24,000 bases of DNA, taken from assembly GCF_051216415.1 (NCBI RefSeq), contig NZ_JBPJZG010000006.1:206601-230600 (forward strand). The letters are read 5' to 3'. The position numbers were made by a program, and so were the translations under genes. Source of the DNA: Variovorax sp. LT1R20 (GTDB taxonomy: Bacteria; Pseudomonadota; Gammaproteobacteria; Burkholderiales; Burkholderiaceae_C). Under the pieces are notes generated by a model. That model ran no database searches. It was not told where the DNA came from and worked only from the letters and a program-made list of their open reading frames with translations. Below, piece by piece: positions 1,806 through 22,567 of the stretch (the first letter of the stretch is position 1; each line of letters begins with the position of its first letter).

Positions 1806-3089
1806 ATGACCCTCGACGATTGCCGCGCGCTCGACGCGCAAGACCCGCTGCGCGCCCTGCGCGATCAATTCACCATTCCTGCCGACGTTCTCTACCTCGA
1901 CGGCAACTCGCTCGGCGTGATGCCCAAGGCGGCGCCCGCACGCATCGCCGAAGTAGTGACCAAGGAATGGGGCGAAGGCCTCATCCGCTCGTGGAACACC
2001 GCGAGCTGGTTCGACCTGCCGCAACGCCTGGGCGACAAGGTGGCCCGGCTCATCGGCGCCGCGCCCGGCGAAGTGGTGTGCACCGACAGCACCTCGGTCA
2101 ATCTCTACAAGGTGCTGTTCGCCGCCCTCTCGCAGCAAAAGGACAGCGGCCGCAAGCTGGTGATCAGCGAGCGCAGCAACTTCCCGACCGACCTCTACAT
2201 CGCCGAATCGCTGTGCCGCGAGCGCGGCTTCACGCTCAAGCTCATCGACGCGAGCGAACTGCAAGGCCCGGATTCGGTGCTGACCGACGAGGTGGCCGTG
2301 CTGATGCTCACGCACGTCAACTACCGCACCGGCGCCATGCACGACATGAAGGCCATCACCGCCGCCGCGCACGCGGTGGGCGCGCTCACGGTGTGGGACC
2401 TCGCGCACAGCGCGGGCGCCGTGCCCGTGGCGCTGAACGACAGCAATGCCGACTACGCGATCGGCTGCGGCTACAAGTACCTGAACGGCGGCCCGGGCGC
2501 ACCGGCCTTCGCATGGGTCAACACCCGGCACGCGGGCCAGTTCGAGCAGCCGCTGTCGGGCTGGTGGGGCCACGCGGCACCCTTCGAGTTCACGCCGCAC
2601 TACCGGCCCGCACCGGGCGTGGGTCGCTACCTCTGCGGCACGCAACCGATCATCGCGCTGGCAGGTCTGGAGTGCGGGCTCGACACGGTGCTCGCCGCCG
2701 AAGCCTTCAACAAGGACCAGGGCGCGATGGCCGCGCTGCGCACGAAGTCGCTCGCGCTCACCGATCTCTTCATCAAGCTGGTCGAAGAACGCTGCGCGGG
2801 ACAAGGCCTCTCGCTCATCACGCCACGCGACCACGCGCAGCGCGGCTCGCAGGTGTGCCTCAGCCGCGACGAAGGCGCCTACGCCATCGTGCAGGCGCTG
2901 ATCGCGCGCGGCGTGATCGGCGACTACCGCGCCGGCGATTCGCAGATGCCCGACATCCTGCGCTTCGGCTTCACGCCGCTGTACATCGGCTTCGAGGATG
3001 TGTGGAACTCGGTCGAACACCTGGTGCAGGTGCTCGAGACGGGCGAGTGGCGACGCGAAGAATTCAACCGCAAGAACGCAGTGACATGA
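1806..3089 (+). CDS. kynU: Kynureninase (PLP-dependent)
   Basis: Kynureninase-like sequence starts at [15 protein letters not shown] (ATG 1806). It includes the [15 protein letters not shown]-lysine region. The 58 upstream codons of the ORF (from 1632) are Pro/Arg-rich and were judged non-coding. Confidence 0.92.
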
Positions 3090-3934
3090 CCGCCGAAAAA
3101 CACACCGAGAACATCGTCCACGAAGAGAAGGCGCAACTGGACTTCAGCAAGTCCATGAGCTACGGCGACTACCTGCACCTGGACGAGATCCTCAACGCCC
3201 AGCACCCGCTCTCGCCCGCGCACGACGAGATGCTGTTCATCGTGCAGCACCAGACCAGCGAGCTCTGGATGAAGCTGATGCTGCACGAGCTGCGCGCAGC
3301 CACCACCTGCATCGCCGATGAGAAGCTGGCCGACGCCTTCAAGAGGCTCGCGCGGGTGAGCCGCATCATGGAACAGCTGGTGAGCGCATGGACCGTGCTC
3401 TCGACCATGACGCCCCCCGAGTACACGGCGATGCGCCCCTACCTCGCCAACTCCAGCGGCTTCCAGAGTGCTCAGTACCGCTGCATCGAGTTCGCGCTCG
3501 GCAACAAGAACGCCGCGATGCTCAAGCCACATGCGCACCGCGCCGATCTGCTCGCGCAGGTCGAGGCGGCCTACCGCTCGCCATCGCTCTACGACGAGTC
3601 GCTGCGCCTCCTCGCGCGCCACGGCCTGCCGGTGCCTGCCGACCGGCTGGAGCGCGACTGGACGCAGCCTTATGAATCGAGCGACGGCGTCGAGGCGGCC
3701 TGGCTCGTGGTCTACCGCAACCCGCACGACCACTGGGACCTGTACCAGCTCGGCGAAAAGCTCACCGACCTCGAAGACGCCTTCCGCCTCTGGCGTTTCC
3801 GCCATGTGACGACCGTCGAACGCGTGATCGGCTTCAAGCGCGGCACCGGCGGCACGGGCGGCGTGAGCTACCTTCGCAAGATGCTCGATGTGGTGCTGTT
3901 CCCCGAGATCTGGAAGCTGCGCACCGACCTCTGA
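3086..3934 (+). CDS. kynA: Tryptophan 2,3-dioxygenase
   Basis: The last 282 aa of the 704-aa ORF ([11 protein letters not shown]...[11 protein letters not shown]) read as TDO. ATG 3086 overlaps the kynU stop (ATGA), which suggests translational coupling. Confidence 0.92.
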
Positions 3935-3941
3935 GCGTCAC

Positions 3942-4255
3942 AGGCCGCGTGCAACAATCGCCGCGGCACCGGACCTTCAAGACTCGACAAGGCAGGCGAT
4001 TCGTCGCTTTCCTTGTGCTGCGGGGCACCCCCGCGGTGGATGGATGGGTACGCATTTCGGCGCGTGAGCGGGACTGCGCTATCGCGCAGCGCAGCTAGCG
4101 CATCACCGGCTGGTTGAAGGGCCGGTTGCCACCTTCGTTCCACTTCACCGCCTTCATGACGCGCGAACCGAGCTACAGGGAATGGATTGCACGCGGCCTC
4201 GCGCATGCCCTGCTGGCCGATGCGAGGCAGCCGGGCGGCACCGCGCCGAATGCGT
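3942..4255 (+). ncRNA. Candidate retron non-coding RNA region (msr-msd-like structured leader); boundaries uncertain
   Basis: A perfect 13-bp inverted repeat joins 3942-3954 (AGGCCGCGTGCAA) to 4187-4199 (TTGCACGCGGCCT). A second long-range pairing joins 4050-4064 to 4242-4255 (14 bp, one bulged T). Local hairpins lie at 3987-4016 (UUCG loop), 4074-4089 and 4105-4126. The region sits immediately 5' of a retron-type RT. No branching G could be assigned with confidence. Confidence 0.3.
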
Positions 4256-5541
4256 TGCGTGCGCGGGCCGAAGCGGCACTGGGCGCCGATCCGCCGTGGC
4301 TGACGCTGCTGGCCGAAGAACTCGGCAAGCGCTCGCTCGCGACATGGGAGCGCACCGATCTTCCCGGGCTGACGCAGGCGATCCTCGACACGCCGGCGCT
4401 GGAGCTGGCCTTCGAACAGGACGAACTGCCCCGCATTCGCCGGCTCATCCTGCGTCCGGCCGACATGCTCCCGCGCCCGATGGGCCTCGACCACTTCGCC
4501 TTGCCTCGGCTGCCCACACTGGCCGATCTCGCGCAGTGGCTCGAACTCGAACCCGACCGCCTCGCGTGGCTCACCGCCGCATCGCAGTCCTTCCGTGCGC
4601 CGGACACATCGAGCCCGCGCCCCGCATCGCACTACCGCTACCAGATGCAGTCCAAGCGCCTCGGCGGCCTGCGGCTGCTCGAGATTCCCAAGGCTGACCT
4701 CAAGCGTGTGCAGCGCCGCATCCTCGACGACCTGCTGCAGCAGATACCGGTGCACGAGGTGGCCCATGGCTTCGTGCAGGAGCGCTCGGTCGCGAGCCAT
4801 GCGGCCGCGCACGTCGGCAAGGATGTGGTGATCGGCTTCGACCTGCGCGATTTCTTTCCCAGCGTTCGCGCATCGCGCGTGCATGCGCTGTGGCGCACGC
4901 TGGGCTATCCCGAAGGCGTGGCGCGCGCGCTCACCGCGCTGTGCACGCACCGCACGTCGACGGCGGTGATCGAGCGCCTTCGCGACGACGGCGGGCTCGA
5001 CTGGATGGGCGCCAAGCGCCTGGCCGAACCGCATCTGCCGCAGGGCTCGCCCTGCTCGCCCGCGCTGGCGAACCTCTGCGCCTTTCGCCTCGACCTGCGG
5101 CTCGAAGGACTGGCGTGGGCCTTCGGCGCCACCTACACGCGCTATGCGGACGACCTCGTGTTCTCGGGTCCTGCGACGCTCCGCGGGCAGTTCAACGCGC
5201 TGCGTGCCTGGGTCGACGGCATCGCTGCCGACGAAGGCTTCGCGTTTCATCCGCGCAAGGTGCGCTGCATGCCGCGGCACCACCAGCAGCGCGTGACGGG
5301 CGTGGTCGTGAACGAGAAGGCGAACACGCCGCGCGTCGACTTCGACCGGCTGAAGGCGGTGCTTCATCAGTGCGTGCTGCACGGCCCCGCAAGCCAGAAC
5401 CGCGCGAAGGTGACCGACTTCCGCGGCCACCTGCTGGGCCACATCGCGTGGATCGGCCAGTTCAATCCGGCGCGCAAGGCAAGGCTGATGCGCCTCTTCG
5501 AACGCATCGAATGGCCAGTCGTCCCGCAATCGGCGGGCTGA
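4156..5541 (+). CDS. Retron-type reverse transcriptase with N-terminal extension
   Basis: The protein is collinear with retron RTs such as Ec86 as I recall them. Shared features are LADLAQWLELEPDRL, YRYQMQSKRLGGLRLLEIP, IGFDLRDFFPS (motif A, from 4834), LPQGSPCSPALANL (5035-5076), YTRYADDLVFS (YADD 5143-5154) and QRVTGVVVN (VTG 5293-5301). The start is uncertain. Candidates are ATG 4156 (given), TTG 4114 (ORF-track start), TTG 4255 and ATG 4465. None has a clear Shine-Dalgarno sequence. Confidence 0.88.
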   Translation: MTREPSYREWIARGLAHALLADARQPGGTAPNALRARAEAALGADPPWLTLLAEELGKRSLATWERTDLPGLTQAILDTPALELAFEQDELPRIRRLILRPADMLPRPMGLDHFALPRLPTLADLAQWLELEPDRLAWLTAASQSFRAPDTSSPRPASHYRYQMQSKRLGGLRLLEIPKADLKRVQRRILDDLLQQIPVHEVAHGFVQERSVASHAAAHVGKDVVIGFDLRDFFPSVRASRVHALWRTLGYPEGVARALTALCTHRTSTAVIERLRDDGGLDWMGAKRLAEPHLPQGSPCSPALANLCAFRLDLRLEGLAWAFGATYTRYADDLVFSGPATLRGQFNALRAWVDGIAADEGFAFHPRKVRCMPRHHQQRVTGVVVNEKANTPRVDFDRLKAVLHQCVLHGPASQNRAKVTDFRGHLLGHIAWIGQFNPARKARLMRLFERIEWPVVPQSAG

Positions 5542-5614
5542 ACGCTCGCATGTACCGGTTGCCACACCCGCGCAAAGCGCTACATTTTTGGCAACAACGA
5601 CGGAGGCTACTGCC

Positions 5615-6865
5615 ATGCACAACATCCGGTTCTCACCCGACGAGATCTCCACCTTGCGGGCACACGGCGTCGTGCTGTTCGCGGATCGCGTGATCTTCGA
5701 TGCGCAGCCGCCGATGCCGGCGCAGCAGATCGCGGCGGTACAGGCCCTCTGCGCCGGACCGATTCCCGAGGCGCTGGTCGCGTTGTGGCAAGAGACGGCG
5801 GGCGGCCGCCTCGACTACGACCTAGCGCTGCCGATGAACGGCAACATCGAAAACGTGAGCTGGTCGGAGCTGTTCTGGGACGGCAGCGACGGCTACCGCG
5901 ACCTGCAGGGCTGGATCGAGCATGAGCAGGCGCTGGCCGAAGACGCCGCCGCCGAGAGCGGCACGCCCTGGAGCGGCAAGATCACCCACCTGCCCTTCGG
6001 CGGCTTCGAGTACCTCGACCGGATCTACACCGTGGTCGAGTCCGGCGAAGCATACGGCCGGGTCATCGCATGGAAGCAGGGCCTGCCGCCGGCCTGGACG
6101 CACGCACTGCACGAAGACACCCTGAGCACCGTCGCGCCGGACCTGCACGGCGCCTTCGCGGCGCTGCACCTGGACGAAGACCCGCTGGCCCCCACGAGCG
6201 ACTACTTCTCGGGCCAGACCCTGCTGCAGTACCTGGACGACCGCCACCAGGACCACGGGCTGGACCTCGACCTGATGGACAAGCTGGTCACCTTCTACTG
6301 CCGCGCGGTGGTCGACTGGCGCACGCCACTGGCGGACGGCACGCTGCGCCATCATCCGGCGCTCGCGCGCGCGGCGCTGCACCACGCGATCGCGACCGAC
6401 GATGCGCAGCTGGTGGCCGAGCTGGCGGCTTCGGGCGTGAGCTTCGACGGGCCGCAGCAGGGCAGCGCCCTCGCGACCGACGTTGCGCTGAGCCAGAGCG
6501 CCTTCGCAGCGGCTGCGGCCCTGGTGCGCGCGGGCGCGCCGGTGGCGGTCGATGCCTTGCGCAGCGTCGATGGCCAGATCGCGCCCGAACTCACGAGCGC
6601 GCTGCTGGCCAACGGCGCCGAGCCGAGCGTGGCAGCCATCGTCAAGTGCGTGGCCTGCGGCGCCCCCGCAAGCGCGCACCTGATCGCCGATGCCTGCACC
6701 GAAGCCGGCATCGACGTGCCGCCGGCCTTTGTCGCGGACCGCGACGCGATGCTGACGGAACTGGAAACGACGTTGGTGAAAGTGCGCGATGGCTCGCTCG
6801 GCCACTACCTCGGGCCGGAAGGCTTGGCGGAACGCATCGAGCACCTGCAGACCTTCAGGCTCTGA
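5615..6865 (+). CDS. SUKH (SMI1/KNR4)-like N-terminal domain plus ankyrin-like C-terminal repeats; putative partner/effector of the RT
   Basis: ATG 5615 is preceded by GGAGG at 5602-5606, whereas the ORF-track start at 5588 lacks an RBS. Residues ~35-190 (nt ~5717-6184) fit the SUKH pattern, including IPEALVALWQETAGGRLDY and LPFGGFEYLDRIYTVVESGEAYGRVIAW. Residues ~245-370 (nt ~6347-6724) contain ANK-like units such as ALHHAIATDDAQLVAELAASGVSFDG. The gene is 73 nt downstream of the RT on the same strand. Domain calls come from pattern memory, not a search. Confidence 0.65.
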   Translation: MHNIRFSPDEISTLRAHGVVLFADRVIFDAQPPMPAQQIAAVQALCAGPIPEALVALWQETAGGRLDYDLALPMNGNIENVSWSELFWDGSDGYRDLQGWIEHEQALAEDAAAESGTPWSGKITHLPFGGFEYLDRIYTVVESGEAYGRVIAWKQGLPPAWTHALHEDTLSTVAPDLHGAFAALHLDEDPLAPTSDYFSGQTLLQYLDDRHQDHGLDLDLMDKLVTFYCRAVVDWRTPLADGTLRHHPALARAALHHAIATDDAQLVAELAASGVSFDGPQQGSALATDVALSQSAFAAAAALVRAGAPVAVDALRSVDGQIAPELTSALLANGAEPSVAAIVKCVACGAPASAHLIADACTEAGIDVPPAFVADRDAMLTELETTLVKVRDGSLGHYLGPEGLAERIEHLQTFRL

Positions 6866-6877
6866 AGGCCGGAGCGC

Positions 6878-8062
6878 TCAACCGCCGTACAGCCAGGGCT
6901 GATCAAGCAACCGCGCACCGAGCGTGCGCATCGCGAGGTCGCGCCCCAGGCGCACAGCGCCGGTGGCATGGAAGACCTCGCCGTTGCGCCGCGCGCGCGC
7001 CTGCACCTGCGCATTGCGCTGCCAGCGCGCCTCGGCGTAGCGCGCGAAGGCTGCGGGCACGTCGGCCGCGGTGCCATCGCCGAGCGCATCGGCCAGTGCG
7101 ACCGCATCCTCGATTGCCATGCCGGCGCCCTGCGCGAGGTACGGCACCATCGGGTGCGCCGCATCGCCCACCAGCGCGACGCGCTCGTGCGCCATGTCGG
7201 CGGCAGAAGTCAACGGCGCGCGGTCGCTGAGCGACCAGGCGCGCCAGCCGGGCATCGCTTCGAGCAGCGCCTGCAGGCCGCCGCCGCTGCGGCCCGTGGC
7301 CTGTTGCAGGGCCGCGATGCTGCTGGACTGGTCCCAATCGCGCGCATCGCCGGCCGGGGCGGATTCGGCGATCACCACCACGTTGAGCCAGTCGCCGCCA
7401 CGCACCGGGTACGCCACGGCGTGGAGATGCGGGCCCAGCCACACATCGACCTGCTGGCGCCGCAGCGCCGCGGGCAAGTCCGCCTGCAAAGCCAGCGCGC
7501 GCCAGGCCGTGTGGCCGGTGACGCGTGGCGGCTCCGCGGCGGAGGGTGTATCGAGTTGCCGCCGCACCAGGCTCCAGAGGCCATCGGCACCCACCAGCGC
7601 CTCGCCCTCCCAGGCGCGGGCGTCGGCGCTCGAGACGCACACGAGGTCGTCGCTGGTCTCGACCTGCCTGATCTGCGCGGCAGTCACCAGCGTACCGATG
7701 CCGCGCGCACGCACCGCTTCGAGCAGCAGTGCATGCAGGTCGGCACGGTGTGCACAGAAGTAAGGAGCGCCGTAGCGTTGCTGCATCGCATCGCCCAGTG
7801 GAAGGCGGGCCAGCACGGCATCGCTGCCGGCGCTGCGGACCACCAATGCGTCCGGGCGCGCCGCGATCTTCGCGAGGCCCGTGCCCAGGTCCAATTGTTG
7901 AAGGCGCCGCGTGACGTTGGGACCGAGCTGCACGCCGGCCCCGATCTCGCCGAAGACCGGCGCCTGCTCGAAGACATCGGCGCGGTGCCGGCCCCGCGAG
8001 AGCGCCAGCGCCGTGGCCAGCCCCCCGATGCCGCCCCCGGCGACGAGGATGTGCGTGGGCAT
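6878..8062 (-). CDS. FAD-dependent aromatic-ring monooxygenase (salicylate/3-hydroxybenzoate hydroxylase-like, UbiH family)
   Basis: The sequence starts MPTHILVAGGGIGGLATALAL (GxGxxG dinucleotide fold). It also has GAGVQLGPN and the C-terminal VALVGDAAHPMVPYLAQGAGMAIEDA FAD fingerprint. ATG at 8062 was chosen over the upstream TTG at 8122. Confidence 0.85.
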   Translation of the reverse strand: MPTHILVAGGGIGGLATALALSRGRHRADVFEQAPVFGEIGAGVQLGPNVTRRLQQLDLGTGLAKIAARPDALVVRSAGSDAVLARLPLGDAMQQRYGAPYFCAHRADLHALLLEAVRARGIGTLVTAAQIRQVETSDDLVCVSSADARAWEGEALVGADGLWSLVRRQLDTPSAAEPPRVTGHTAWRALALQADLPAALRRQQVDVWLGPHLHAVAYPVRGGDWLNVVVIAESAPAGDARDWDQSSSIAALQQATGRSGGGLQALLEAMPGWRAWSLSDRAPLTSAADMAHERVALVGDAAHPMVPYLAQGAGMAIEDAVALADALGDGTAADVPAAFARYAEARWQRNAQVQARARRNGEVFHATGAVRLGRDLAMRTLGARLLDQPWLYGG

Positions 8063-8103
8063 CGGACTCAGAGGCTGGGAGGTAATTCGGCGTGACCGAG
8101 CAG

Positions 8104-8196
8104 CCCCCGCAAATGGCTCCAATCAAGGCGCAAAGCACAGCCATAGCTCGGGCTATGGCGAGCATTTGCAACGCGGAGTGGGGCCATTTGCGGGGG
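8104..8196. repeat. 93-nt imperfect palindrome (long hairpin) in the intergenic region
   Basis: The outer arms 8104-8121 (CCCCCGCAAATGGCTCCA) and 8179-8196 (TGGGGCCATTTGCGGGGG) are complementary at 17/18 positions. The exception is a T:G pair that would be a U.G wobble in a plus-strand RNA. A middle pairing joins GCAAA 8130-8134 to TTTGC 8165-8169. The apical 8-bp stem GCCATAGC 8140-8147 / GCTATGGC 8152-8159 has a TCGG loop. Confidence 0.6.
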
Positions 8197-10861: not shown

Positions 10862-11320
10862 TCAGGCCAGCTCGACGATGCGCGCCGACACCGCATCGCC
10901 ATCGACGATGAGTTCGGCAACGGCGATTGGCAATTTGAATCGCCGCGGGCCGGCGCTGCCCGGGTTGACGTAGAGCACGCCGCCGCGCTCTTCGACCTTC
11001 GGCTTGTGGGAATGCCCGGAGACCACCACGCGAACGCCGGCGCCGGCGGGATCGATGTCGATCTGCGAAAGGTCGTGGATGGCATAGATGACCACGCTTC
11101 CCACCTTCAGGAATTCCATCTCCGCAATGCCATCGGCCCAAGGTTCCCGGTCGTTGTTGCCCCGCACGACCGTCAACGGCGCGATGGCCGCGAGCGCCTC
11201 CAGGATGCCGGCGTTGCCGATGTCTCCGCCGTGCACGATGAAATCGCTGCCCTGCAGGAAGGCGGTGGCTTCGGGCCGCAGGAGGCCGTGCGTGTCGGAG
11301 ATGAGGCCGATGCGGTGCAT
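10862..11320 (-). CDS. YfcE/MJ0936-family metallophosphoesterase
   Basis: 152 aa starting MHRIGLISDTHG. It carries the GGDIGN, GNND and SGHSHKP metal-binding motifs of calcineurin-like phosphoesterases. The upstream part of the 292-aa ORF is Arg/Gly-rich and was rejected. Confidence 0.85.
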   Translation of the reverse strand: MHRIGLISDTHGLLRPEATAFLQGSDFIVHGGDIGNAGILEALAAIAPLTVVRGNNDREPWADGIAEMEFLKVGSVVIYAIHDLSQIDIDPAGAGVRVVVSGHSHKPKVEERGGVLYVNPGSAGPRRFKLPIAVAELIVDGDAVSARIVELA

Positions 11321-11389
11321 AGGATGAAAGTTCTTCTCGCTAACCCGAAGGTGCGGCAATGCGGGTCGGGGACGCCGCTTGGCAAAGGC

Positions 11390-12874
11390 ATGATCGCCGC
11401 CATGCCCGAGGACATCATCGCACCCCCCACCCTTGCCGAAACGCCCGAAGCGGCATCGGCCCTTCCCCCTTCGCCACCTGCCGAACCACCCGTTGCGCCG
11501 CGCGCGAACCTGCTGCACTGGGTCGCGGCGGGCCTGCGCACCGCCTTCCTGCAGCCGCCGCGCATCGAAGCCGCGCCCGCGCCCTGGCAACTGTTGCTGC
11601 TCGTGCTGCTGCCGGAGCTGCTGTGGATCGGCCTCGGCCGCTTCGAGGTGCGCGGGCCAGCCGAGCTCAGCCCCACGGTCGCGCTCTACCAGTTCTGGAT
11701 GTGGGGCGCGCTCGCGTGGCTGGGCTGGGGCGCGTTGCAAGGCGGGCCGAGCCGGCTCGCACGCTGGCTGGTGCTCGCCACCTGGGCCTCGTTCCCGGTC
11801 AACCTGCTGTTCATGAGCCTGACGCTCGCCCTCACGTACGGCTGGTCACCCGCATTTCTCAAGAGCACGACAAACGTCTGGCTGGTCTACGGCTTCGGCT
11901 ATGCGTGGATGCTGCTCGCGATCACCCGCCTCACGGTGCGCGAGGCCGTCGTGCGCTGGCGGATCGCCTTGTCCGTGCCCGGGCTCGTGGCGCTGATGGC
12001 GCTGGGTTTCTGGCAGTCGCTCAACATGCAGGAACGTGTCTGGCACGTCGACTACGCCGCCGCAGCGGCGGCCCAGCCCCGGCGCCCGAGCCTGGAACTC
12101 ACGCAGGAAGTCTTCGAGCAGCAGCAGGCGCTGTGGGAGCACGCCGTGGCCGGCATCGGCGAGCGGCAGCCGGGGCAGGTCAATGTCTATGGCCTCGTGT
12201 TCGCGCCCTACGCCGCCGAAGACGTGTTCCTTCGCGAAAGCACGATGGTCGCCAAGCTGCTCGAAGAGCGCTTCGATGCGAAGCAGCGCGTGCTGCATCT
12301 GGCCAACCACGCGACCACCGCCGACACGCTGCCCTGGGCCACGCCGCTCAACCTGCAGCGCGCCATTGCAGCGCTCGGCCAGCGCATGGACCGCGAGAAC
12401 GACCTGCTCGTGGTCTATCTCACCTCGCATGGCGCGCAAGACCACCAACTGGCCGCCACGAACGGCGCGTTGACAGTGCCGTGGCTCACGCCCGAAGACC
12501 TGCGCAAGGCCCTGGACGACGCTGGCATCCGCCACCGCGTGCTGGCGATCTCGGCCTGCTATTCGGGCGGCTGGATCGAACCCCTGGCGAACGACGACAC
12601 GCTGCTGATGACCGCCGCCGACGCCACGCACACCTCCTACGGCTGCGGGCGCCTGTCGGACCTGACTTTCTTCGGCCGCGCGATGTTCGACGAGGAACTG
12701 CGCAAGACCCGCTCGTTCGAAACCGCCTTCGCAGCCGCTGTGCCGGTGATCAAGCAGCGCGAGATCGACGCCGGCAAGGACGACGGTTTTTCCAACCCGC
12801 AGATCAGCACTGGCGAAAAGATCCGCCCGGTGCTCGACCAGCTTGCGCGGCGGCTCGATGCCGCCGGCAAGTAA
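11390..12874 (+). CDS. Membrane-anchored peptidase C13 (legumain/caspase-fold) family protein
   Basis: The C-terminal domain has VVYLTSHG (catalytic His-Gly) and VLAISACYSGGW (catalytic Cys), as in clan CD C13 peptidases. The N-terminal ~230 aa are hydrophobic with several predicted TM helices. The start is uncertain (ATG 11390 or 11402). ORF sequence upstream of 11390 overlaps the divergent phosphoesterase gene and has low GC3. Confidence 0.75.
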   Translation: MIAAMPEDIIAPPTLAETPEAASALPPSPPAEPPVAPRANLLHWVAAGLRTAFLQPPRIEAAPAPWQLLLLVLLPELLWIGLGRFEVRGPAELSPTVALYQFWMWGALAWLGWGALQGGPSRLARWLVLATWASFPVNLLFMSLTLALTYGWSPAFLKSTTNVWLVYGFGYAWMLLAITRLTVREAVVRWRIALSVPGLVALMALGFWQSLNMQERVWHVDYAAAAAAQPRRPSLELTQEVFEQQQALWEHAVAGIGERQPGQVNVYGLVFAPYAAEDVFLRESTMVAKLLEERFDAKQRVLHLANHATTADTLPWATPLNLQRAIAALGQRMDRENDLLVVYLTSHGAQDHQLAATNGALTVPWLTPEDLRKALDDAGIRHRVLAISACYSGGWIEPLANDDTLLMTAADATHTSYGCGRLSDLTFFGRAMFDEELRKTRSFETAFAAAVPVIKQREIDAGKDDGFSNPQISTGEKIRPVLDQLARRLDAAGK

Positions 12875-20267: not shown

Positions 20268-21419
20268 TCACGCGTAAAGGCTCTCGATGGCGGCGGTGTA
20301 GATGCGCACGTTCTCCTCACCCTCGGGATCGAGCTTCGCGACGAGCTGGCGTGCGCGCTCGCGATAGGCCGGCAGGTTGGCATCGTGCGTGGCAAAGGCC
20401 TCCTGCAGCGCGCGGCCACCCTCCTCGCAGTCGAAGTCGTGGTAACGGTAGCCGCAGTCGCCGATGAGGTGCGAGTTGTGGATCAGCGGGTAGCCGCCGT
20501 AGAGCGCCTCGTAGTAGAGGTAGTTCTGCCCGTTCTCCCAGTGGTGCGCGAAGACGGCGTCGACGTTGCCCGGCAGCACCTGGTACAGCGGGAAGCGCCC
20601 CTCGAAGGTGGCCAGGCCGTGCTGCACGATGTTCAGGCTCTGCGCGAAGCCGACGAACAGCGGCTTCTCCTTGAGGTGAAAGCTGTTGTAGACCCACACC
20701 CGCTCGAGCAGTCGGGGCTGCGCACGGTGCGCCGCCTCGCAGCCGAGCATGGGAATGAAGCTGGTCTTCACCATGCAGATGTTGGGCTCGAAGATGGCCA
20801 CGCGCCAATGCTTGCGCCCCGGCTCGTAGTCGAAACGCTTGTCGTCCCCGGCACGCGCCATGGCCTTCTCCAGCACCATCGGGCTCCAGAGATGCGGCAT
20901 CAGCCGCACCGGCGCGCGGAAGGTGCTCGCAAAGTACGGCTTGCACGACACCTCGTACTCCGGCAGCGTCCAGACTTCGTCGTAAGGCGCGCCCGAGACG
21001 AGCATGCCGTGCGGCTTGTTGAAGATCATGCGTTCGATGTCGATCACGTAGTCGTTGCCCACGCGCATCGAGACGATCTTGCCGCCGCGTTCCTTGAACG
21101 CCACCGACCATTCGCGCGCCAGCTGCGCGCTCATCTCGATCATGAGATCGAGCTCTTGCGCGGCGGTGGCCATGTCGATGATCGGCACGGGCGAATCGGC
21201 CAGGAAGTTGGTGGCGTCCGCCGGGCCGCCGTCGCCGCCGCCCGCCACCAGCACCGTGCTGGCCACGCGCGGCGAGCGCATCAGGAGCATCACGAGGAAC
21301 AGGCAGTTCTGGTAGACGCCGTTTTCCCAGAGGCTCTGCTCGCCCTTGCGGATGAAGATAGAAACGCCGACCCGGAGTTTTGCGGGCATGGCTGAAGGGG
21401 AGTTCTGCATTTCGCTCAT
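20268..21419 (-). CDS. DUF2827-like protein, paralog 2 (family assignment from memory)
   Basis: 383 aa. It is clearly paralogous to the upstream gene, sharing LWENG..QNCLFL, VAIFEPNICMVK and HHWENGQNYLYYEALYGGYPLIHNS. ATG 21419 overlaps the upstream stop (ATGA). Alternative starts are at 21410 and 21389. Confidence 0.7.
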   Translation of the reverse strand: MSEMQNSPSAMPAKLRVGVSIFIRKGEQSLWENGVYQNCLFLVMLLMRSPRVASTVLVAGGGDGGPADATNFLADSPVPIIDMATAAQELDLMIEMSAQLAREWSVAFKERGGKIVSMRVGNDYVIDIERMIFNKPHGMLVSGAPYDEVWTLPEYEVSCKPYFASTFRAPVRLMPHLWSPMVLEKAMARAGDDKRFDYEPGRKHWRVAIFEPNICMVKTSFIPMLGCEAAHRAQPRLLERVWVYNSFHLKEKPLFVGFAQSLNIVQHGLATFEGRFPLYQVLPGNVDAVFAHHWENGQNYLYYEALYGGYPLIHNSHLIGDCGYRYHDFDCEEGGRALQEAFATHDANLPAYRERARQLVAKLDPEGEENVRIYTAAIESLYA

Positions 21420-22567
21420 GCGGCTTTCCTCACGCCGTCGGCACGGAATGCGGGGTCGCCGCCCACGAGATGGAGCAGCCGCCGTGCATAGCCATCGATG
21501 TTTGCCTGATGCAGCGGATCGATCGCATCGAACATGCGCTGGCTGCGGGCGCGGTAGTCGTCCAGTTGCGCATCGTGCCCGCGTACCGCCTGCAGCAGCT
21601 GGTCGGTACCGGCGGCGATGTCGAAATCGGGGTAGTAGTAACCGGCATCGCGCAGCCAGGGCGAGTTGTGCACGAGCGGGTAGTTGCCGTACAGCGCGTC
21701 GAGATAGCTGTAGTTCTGGTCGTTCTGCCACTGGTGCGACACCACCGCATCGGCAAACTGCACCATGAACCCCGCGAAGTCGTGTCGCCCATGGAAGATG
21801 GCCTTGTGCTGGCGCACGATGTCCAGCGAGTTCGCCATGTAGAGCATCGTCGCGTGGTCCTTCAGGTGCAGGGTGTTGAGCACCTGCATCGAGGTCACGG
21901 CGTTCGGATCGACGCGGTAGGCACCGTCGCAGATCAGCATGGGCACGCTGCTGGACTTCACCACCGAGATGTTGGGCTCGAAGATCGCCACGCGGAAGCC
22001 GGGCTGCTCGGCGGTGCGCGGCGTGTAGCCGAAGCGATAGCCCGACGCCGCCACTTCGGTCACGCGCTGGTCCAGGAACTGCGGCGACCAGAGGTACGGG
22101 ACTTCATGCACCGGGCAACGGTGCAGGGTCCGCATCATCGGTGCGAAGACGCCATCCTTGGGCAGCAGCCAGACCTCGTCGCAGCGGTCGGGCTTGCTGA
22201 AGTGGCCCTTGTCGCTGAACACGATCGGCTCGGCCAGCGCCACGAAGGGTTGCCCCACGCAATGGAAGACGGCACGCCCGCCGCAGGCGCGGAAGTACGA
22301 GAGCCATTGCACGTCGAGCGCGCCGGCCATCTCGATGACCACGTCCAGCGCATCGGTCAGCTCGCGGGCGCGACCGATGGCAAGGCCCATGGCGGACAGG
22401 TCGACCTGCGGCGGCATGGCCTGCTGGTCGCCCGCATCGACCAGCGTGACGGACTCGACAAAGTCGATGCGTTGCAGCAGCCGGGCGAGAAACAGGACGT
22501 TCTGCCCCATCCCATTTTCCCAGATGTTCTGCCCCGCGTGAGTGAGGACTGAAATACCAATGCGCAT
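21416..22567 (-). CDS. DUF2827-like protein, paralog 1 (family assignment from memory)
   Basis: 383 aa starting MRIGISVLTHAGQNIWENGMGQNVLFL. It also has VAIFEPNISVVK and SHQWQNDQNYSYLDALYGNYPLVHNS. GC3 is high. Confidence 0.7.
   Translation of the reverse strand: MRIGISVLTHAGQNIWENGMGQNVLFLARLLQRIDFVESVTLVDAGDQQAMPPQVDLSAMGLAIGRARELTDALDVVIEMAGALDVQWLSYFRACGGRAVFHCVGQPFVALAEPIVFSDKGHFSKPDRCDEVWLLPKDGVFAPMMRTLHRCPVHEVPYLWSPQFLDQRVTEVAASGYRFGYTPRTAEQPGFRVAIFEPNISVVKSSSVPMLICDGAYRVDPNAVTSMQVLNTLHLKDHATMLYMANSLDIVRQHKAIFHGRHDFAGFMVQFADAVVSHQWQNDQNYSYLDALYGNYPLVHNSPWLRDAGYYYPDFDIAAGTDQLLQAVRGHDAQLDDYRARSQRMFDAIDPLHQANIDGYARRLLHLVGGDPAFRADGVRKAA

Follow-up and report, generated by a model that had tools for sequence, protein, structure and literature searches.

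A putative stand-alone retron located beside a SUKH–ankyrin gene in Variovorax

The locus and its leader RNA

The window is the whole stretch of DNA analysed, 24,000 nt from Variovorax sp. LT1R20 (contig NZ_JBPJZG010000006.1, positions 206,601 to 230,600), and all coordinates given here are those of the window. The interval 3935–6877, bounded by the kynA stop (3934) and by that of a convergent monooxygenase gene (6878), contains two open reading frames (ORFs) on the same strand. Reading from the left, a structured leader (3962–4131, plus strand) precedes the gene of a retron-type reverse transcriptase (RT; 4156–5541, plus strand), which runs from a conserved ATG at 4156 to a stop codon ending at 5541 and encodes 461 amino acids. 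After a spacer of 73 nt there follows the gene of a 416-amino-acid SUKH-1 (SMI1/KNR4) and ankyrin-repeat protein (5615–6865, plus strand). A first-pass annotation of this DNA described the interval as a 2.9-kb insert carrying a two-gene cassette, which it proposed might be a retron-like defence system with the SUKH–ankyrin protein as a possible new effector or sensor. Its coordinates, motifs and gene order are correct, all of the features being found at the positions given. The analysis below indicates that the leader and the RT probably form a retron on their own, to which the second gene most likely does not belong.

The leader has the anatomy of a retron-like non-coding RNA (ncRNA) of the msr–msd type, as defined by its fold, consensus structure and covariance model. 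Starting at the 5′ end, the RNA forms the first arm of the closing stem (a1, 3965–3980), followed by an unpaired G (3981) that is the candidate branching nucleotide and is present in 77 of 82 aligned sequences. The strand then passes through hairpin 1 (3987–4016), hairpin 2 (4017–4037) with its invariant GGGG/CCCC stem, and a weak third hairpin (4042–4057), before forming a longer, msd-like 3′ stem-loop (4058–4112). A second, opposing unpaired G (4113), found in 79/82 sequences, leads into the other arm of the closing stem (a2, 4114–4130). All of these elements lie on the plus strand. 'Two opposing G residues' are a described feature of canonical msr–msd transcripts.

Several lines of evidence support this structure. 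The 170 nt preceding the RT gene have a mean identity of 91% over eight Variovorax species, while the flanking spacer is variable, and the fold is more stable than that of shuffled controls (z = −3.16; 2 of 200 shuffles equal it). A covariance model (R1) was built from the eight Variovorax leader sequences and compared with a set of 84 RT loci, 8 from Variovorax and 76 from other genera. It finds full-length, plus-strand matches ending just before the start of the RT in 82 of the 84, including loci of Rhodoferax, Polaromonas, Hydrogenophaga, Ramlibacter, Roseateles, Burkholderia, Paraburkholderia, Sulfuriferula and others. On the alignment of 82 sequences the proposed partners can pair in 90.1% of cells, compared with 37–42% when they are slid by one to three columns; since the alignment was fitted by the model the first figure is somewhat inflated, but the slid controls are still far lower. 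Compensatory, two-sided changes occur in 53 of 59 pairs, and none of 500 shuffles reaches the observed values. The closing stem a1/a2 comprises 15 bp, with covariation in every one of them. The structured leader of the earlier description is therefore confirmed by the shuffling test and by conservation and covariation across the 82 loci. From its architecture we conclude that the leader is a putative retron ncRNA, with multicopy single-stranded DNA (msDNA) as its predicted product.

A −10-like hexamer (3953–3958, plus strand) is located ∼7 nt before a1. Its sequence is AACAAT in the window, and six other Variovorax species have TACAAT there. It lies in a conserved alignment block, and on that ground it is a candidate −10 element. 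No convincing −35 element was found for it, and the consensus scanner also made no call at this position. A perfect inverted repeat of 13 nt (3942–3954/4187–4199) was considered as an alternative a1/a2 and rejected, being located outside the block conserved in Variovorax and having no place in the covarying structure. A search of 3700–7100 against Rfam 15 at a permissive threshold returned nothing relevant.

Related RTs of Dietzia and Tsukamurella are also preceded by weak matches to R1 (L095:2771–2929 and L094:3520–3684, with E = 0.008 and 0.18 respectively). Both matches are on the right strand and in exactly the right place, and one holds a GGGG-CAA-CCCC hairpin. This hints that the ncRNA family may extend to the Actinomycetota.

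The reverse transcriptase

The translation of the RT includes the motifs FDLRDFFPS, LPQGSPCSPALANL, YTRYADDLVFS and QRVTGVVVN. It matches Pfam RVT_1 with 64 bits (cut-off 29.6). Among the PADLOC models the best score is given by PDLC02949 (RT_other/retron_other; 472 bits over nearly the full length), followed by PDLC03740 (RT_outgroup; 447 bits) and RT_XIII (315 bits); PDLC02949 carries the name 'retron_other' in a published PADLOC output table. The remaining retron types score below RT_XIII for the window RT and 13 diverse relatives, and all 14 members of the clade score best with retron_other and second best with RT_outgroup. A search of the PDB gives exclusively retron RTs at E ≤ 0.001, headed by the Ec86 RT (1.4e−30). 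The scores obtained with NCBIfam models of other classes fall far under their cut-offs, both for the group II intron RT (36 bits against 300) and for Drt2 (31 against 390). The enzyme had been called retron-type from its motifs, and both the structural matches and the top PADLOC models, all of which are retron models, agree; in the comparison of retron models with those of group II introns and Drt2 it sides with the retrons. The 461-amino-acid RT is closest to enzymes that have been proven to make msDNA.

Two signatures distinguish retron RTs according to Mestre et al. 2020, region X with the consensus NAXXH between RT2 and RT3, of which the H is most conserved, and the VTG of region Y in RT7. 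The VTG triplet and the YADD motif are both present here, and T381, G382, Y330, A331, D332 and D333 are invariant in the 14 clade members. Region X reads HAAAH and is aligned with NATPH of Ec86; the A and the final H are invariant, and all members of the clade have H in place of the N.

The clade also shares a conserved, mostly helical N-terminal extension of ∼150 amino acids (residues 1–155, window 4156–4620), in which Pfam finds no match. An AlphaFold2 model of the RT has a mean predicted local distance difference test score (pLDDT) of 62, too poor for a fold search. Relative to Ec86 the clade carries an insertion of ∼27 amino acids right before the LPQG motif (residues ∼266–293, window 4951–5034).

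The RT identity declines roughly with taxonomic distance. No full-length relatives of the RT are present in phage records, and the plasmid records that hold them are megabase Burkholderia replicons only. The locus L094 (NZ_LR134447.1) is named 'plasmid 5' of Tsukamurella tyrosinosolvens, but polA and rpsA are located around the RT and the replicon looks chromosomal, so that this locus cannot be counted as a plasmid-borne RT. The clade appears to reside mainly in the Burkholderiales and to be inherited largely vertically.

The SUKH–ankyrin gene and the history of the site

The 416-amino-acid protein gives a weak match to Pfam SMI1_KNR4 (PF09346; 17.3 bits, below the cut-off of 25.4). Its relatives match the same model with 37–50 bits, and some pass the cut-offs of SMI1_KNR4, Ank and Ank_4. 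The exact protein of the window is absent from the contig index, and homologues were used instead; the family comprises ∼180 representatives at 50% identity. The family profile matches ankyrin-repeat and DARPin chains over positions 250–345 (best whole-sequence E = 3.2e−29). An AlphaFold2 model (pLDDT 93.7) contains helix pairs over residues 248–363, and Foldseek aligns it with the Knr4 core, the SMI1/KNR4 protein BF1740, FBXO3 and DARPins. The proposed fusion of a SUKH domain to ankyrin-like repeats is thus upheld by family matches, profile search and modelled structure. No toxic or enzymatic domain can be recognised in the protein, and the check with PADLOC gave no match to it. One metagenomic relative of 861 amino acids (P0245) contains two tandem SUKH–ankyrin units in a single polypeptide.

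If the two genes formed a cassette, as the first-pass annotation had it, they might be expected to occur together elsewhere. The SUKH–ankyrin gene is located downstream of the RT in all eight Variovorax loci and in none of the 76 from other genera, so the adjacency is confined to one Variovorax sublineage, and the check for conservation of the pair as neighbours fails outside it. Clustering of the flanking ORFs gave no RT neighbour common to different genera. A search for shared neighbours in 85 loci returned only synteny at the level of the genus (MFS transporter, LysR, H-NS-like, ABC ATPase, aldehyde dehydrogenase and response regulator), and the sampled neighbours of the RT outside Variovorax are ordinary genes. 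Conversely, the SUKH–ankyrin gene occurs without an adjacent RT in eight loci, three of them at the same site between kynA and the monooxygenase gene. In Rhizobacter, Burkholderia cenocepacia and two further genomes the gene is found by itself, surrounded by housekeeping genes; the first two also possess the RT, but not next to the SUKH–ankyrin gene. Both sides of this comparison contradict the two-gene cassette with a SUKH/ankyrin effector.

In nine loci of the Burkholderia cepacia complex (L039:7375–8022, and also L058, L059, L061, L069, L072–L074 and L078) the RT is followed on its own strand, after ∼70 nt, by a conserved ORF with an H-NS C-terminal domain. It is another neighbour at the level of the genus, and could equally be mistaken for a partner of the RT.

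The three loci at the same site come from deeper relatives, Variovorax sp. PAMC 28711 (72% identity), a Comamonadaceae metagenome-assembled genome (72%) and a third contig (64%). Each has the order kynB-kynU-kynA, SUKH–ankyrin, monooxygenase-DUF6587-FeoB-FeoA, with neither RT nor ncRNA and with only 22–68 nt between kynA and the SUKH–ankyrin gene. The last ∼35 nt before the SUKH–ankyrin ATG are common to loci with and without the RT (including the kynA–SUKH spacers of L091 and L093), and this shared part of the spacer holds a conserved promoter-like element and a ribosome-binding site. In the window the element corresponds to a promoter-like site in the spacer between the two genes (5559–5586, plus strand; TTGCCA-16-TACATT), with a GGAGG ribosome-binding site after it. 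It is the sole sigma-70-like site detected in 3700–7100, where 0.1 would be expected, and is kept among the Variovorax species. No terminator-like site was found between the RT and the SUKH–ankyrin gene, and co-transcription is therefore possible in Variovorax.

The sites lacking the RT, together with the shared proximal spacer, argue that the inserted unit was the RNA and RT alone (∼3935–5541, ∼1.6 kb). The interval of 2.9 kb and its ORFs are real, but only this part of it is missing in the relatives. Relatives without the insert had been proposed as a check, with kynA directly next to the monooxygenase gene; such sites without the RT do exist, but the SUKH–ankyrin gene still stands between the two flanks. 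The order of events indicated by this comparison is the insertion of the RNA and RT module beside the SUKH–ankyrin gene, loss of the module from the other loci being less parsimonious. The SUKH–ankyrin gene was thus most likely at the site before the arrival of the retron, and is most likely not its partner.

The insertion would not be recent in this genome. The RT locus is syntenic across the eight Variovorax species, the GC content is flat over the region with no anomaly, and the GC content at third codon positions of the RT and SUKH–ankyrin genes is that of host genes. The synonymous divergence (dS) of both genes between Variovorax species is 0.26–0.53, close to the values for kynA and the monooxygenase gene. 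The ratio of non-synonymous to synonymous rates (dN/dS) is 0.15–0.26 for the RT and falls within 0.15–0.30 for the SUKH–ankyrin gene, corresponding to purifying selection on both. The synteny, the lack of a GC anomaly and a dS matching the housekeeping genes on either side contradict the description of the interval as a small isolated islet, where this was taken to mean a mobile one.

Both flanking genes are host context and outside the element. On the left, kynA (3086–3934, plus strand) encodes tryptophan 2,3-dioxygenase (Pfam Trp_dioxygenase, 4e−73) and flanks the locus in other Variovorax species as well as in the relatives that lack the RT. The FAD-binding monooxygenase gene on the right (6878–8122, minus strand; Pfam FAD_binding_3) shows synteny throughout the Variovorax loci and also in those lacking the RT. 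Further along the window, the C-terminal third of a 622-amino-acid protein (11006–12874, plus strand), whose gene adjoins the Feo iron-transport genes, matches Peptidase_C13 (legumain-like). Two adjacent or overlapping paralogous ORFs (20271–22567, minus strand) are both full-length matches to DUF2827, with 462 and 402 bits.

Interpretation and comparison with known systems

The interval 3962–5541 is probably best explained as a stand-alone retron, comprising an msr–msd-type ncRNA and its RT, that carries no effector and is independent of the SUKH–ankyrin gene. The mechanism proposed for it follows from the anatomy of the RNA and from established retron biochemistry. The transcript would start near a1, and a1 would pair with a2. 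The RT would then bind the msr hairpins and be primed from the 2′-OH of the unpaired G3981, copying the msd stem-loop from ∼4112 back to ∼4058 to give a short msDNA that is still attached to the RNA. No effector is carried with the module. RT and msDNA may act in defence with a partner encoded elsewhere or may have a domesticated role in the cell. The SUKH–ankyrin gene would belong to the kynurenine and Feo neighbourhood and keep its own promoter-proximal region, and its product is most likely an independent, immunity-like, protein-binding protein.

Stand-alone cassettes of (msr–msd)–RT form have been described in clade 11 and in a branch of clade 2 (Mestre et al. 2020). In a 2026 survey clade 11 A/B are kept as groups without recurrent accessory genes, and clade 11 A is enriched in Pseudomonadota, Actinomycetota and Acidobacteriota. 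The RT clade, which is the retron_other of PADLOC, probably corresponds to the clade 11 cassettes, because of its stand-alone status, its actinobacterial relatives with 38–43% identity, and the weak but correctly placed ncRNA matches there.

Several points weigh against the stand-alone retron. The indirect placing in clade 11 is one, as is the inflation of the pairing figure by the model-fitted alignment. The msDNA of this clade is itself a prediction from anatomy, and region X is HAxxH instead of the canonical NAxxH. The SUKH–ankyrin gene is kept beside the RT in every RT-bearing Variovorax locus examined (8/8), and the two genes may be transcribed together.

One alternative concerns the second gene only, and is compatible with a stand-alone retron. 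The SUKH–ankyrin protein might be an orphan fused immunity protein acting against toxins delivered by competitors. Both SUKH and ankyrin ('Imm-ank') are listed as immunity modules that frequently occur in fusion with further immunity domains (Zhang et al. 2012, PMC3482391), and the protein is a stand-alone cytoplasmic one consisting of binding modules only. However, no adjacent toxin gene or polyimmunity array is present among the called genes of the contexts inspected, and a conserved single copy at a fixed site under purifying selection is unlike the typical variable immunity cassette. This reading is tentative, and on balance somewhat unlikely.

A second alternative is that of a lineage-specific co-option, in which Variovorax recruited the resident SUKH–ankyrin protein as a sensor or effector of the retron and so created a new tripartite system in this sublineage. 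The adjacency maintained in eight Variovorax species, on the same strand with a gap of 73 nt and no terminator-like site, would fit such a recruitment, as would the protein-binding nature of both SUKH and ankyrin modules. Retrons gain partners modularly, and helical-repeat proteins serve as accessories in type XIII, the typed relative closest to this one (Mestre et al. 2020); the occurrence of both genes in Rhizobacter and B. cenocepacia, albeit apart, can also be counted in its favour. The retained adjacency nevertheless has no special weight given that the entire neighbourhood is syntenic, and the SUKH–ankyrin gene predates the retron at the site, with a conserved promoter-like element and ribosome-binding site of its own. 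Moreover its product has neither a recognisable toxic or enzymatic domain nor a PADLOC match, and the RT clade persists without the gene in at least 76 other species. Co-option is accordingly improbable, and the suggestion that SUKH/ankyrin might provide a new effector or sensor logic for retrons is unsupported and should no longer be treated as a new type of defence system.

A third alternative would take the RNA for a common cis-regulatory 5′ leader whose RT serves another purpose, with no retron and no msDNA. It is very unlikely: the msDNA as a prediction, the unusual region X and the lack of an Rfam match would allow it, but the build of the RNA is the hallmark of a retron (pairing of its ends as a1/a2, opposing G residues that 77 and 79 of the 82 sequences have, msr-like hairpins, and a longer one towards the 3′ end), and the RT is closest to proven makers of msDNA.

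Returning to the stand-alone retron, some retrons are vertically inherited and 'may have been domesticated', and for orphan retrons it was left open whether they have partners in trans or roles other than defence (Mestre et al. 2020). The strongly covarying ncRNA, the purifying selection and the location at fixed positions between housekeeping genes, in 80 or more species mostly of the Burkholderiales, could be read as domestication of the whole effector-less clade, with RT and msDNA acting in the cell itself or with a partner elsewhere and not as an abortive-infection toxin–antitoxin system. This is a speculative extension that we consider doubtful, but if true it would make Variovorax a tractable model for what orphan retrons do. 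The locus exemplifies in well-defined form a class that is catalogued but uncharacterised, that of effector-less retrons inherited with the host genome. It offers a clean ncRNA model, natural relatives in which this site lacks the RT, and hosts that can be cultivated and have known phages, and is thus usable for the question of partners in trans versus non-defence roles.

The closest described counterparts are the clade 11 cassettes with ncRNA families A/B and the Ec107-like branch of clade 2 (Mestre et al. 2020). The Variovorax cassette resembles these in its retron-type RT with its own ncRNA closed by a1/a2, in the lack of a recurrent accessory gene, in partly vertical inheritance, and in having relatives in both Actinomycetota and Pseudomonadota. 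It differs from them in its location beside a SUKH–ankyrin gene, in the N-terminal extension of ∼150 amino acids, and in the HAxxH of region X.

Type XIII (Mx162/Retron-Mxa1, Mx65, Sa163 and Ne144) is the typed RT family closest by hidden Markov model (315 bits), and largely vertical inheritance is reported for it. It has partner genes of the SWIM-zinc-finger and WGR/HEAT-ARM kinds, none of which is found at the Variovorax locus. Membership of type XIII was considered and rejected: the RT_XIII score is 157 bits below that of retron_other, the SWIM and WGR/HEAT-ARM genes are absent, and there are no conserved neighbours. A PADLOC 'retron XIII' is reported in two papers on Variovorax, but the published table shows that this is another locus, of canonical type XIII make-up, in which SWIM, WGR and HEAT-ARM genes are present. 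It is located at contig1 4343790–4351229 of a Variovorax sp. (supplement of PMC11953036; HEAT-ARM, WGR-HEAT, SWIM and RT), and the same PADLOC table lists no stand-alone retron_other RT for that genome. The genus Variovorax can thus carry two different kinds of retron.

Tripartite defence retrons are usually located in prophages or defence islands. Ec86 (Eco1) and its like share with the Variovorax retron the RT motifs and the logic of the ncRNA, the Ec86 RT being the best match in the PDB. They have an adjacent, co-inherited toxic effector, whereas the Variovorax retron has none and is located among housekeeping genes. The 416-amino-acid protein, for its part, has the domain composition of the SUKH-1/ankyrin 'Imm' modules of polymorphic-toxin systems (Zhang et al. 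2011/2012), but its gene differs from these in being a conserved single copy at a fixed chromosomal site with no neighbouring toxin gene. The retron is of a kind that is already catalogued, and this locus is an additional member that adjoins a resident gene, most likely unrelated to it.

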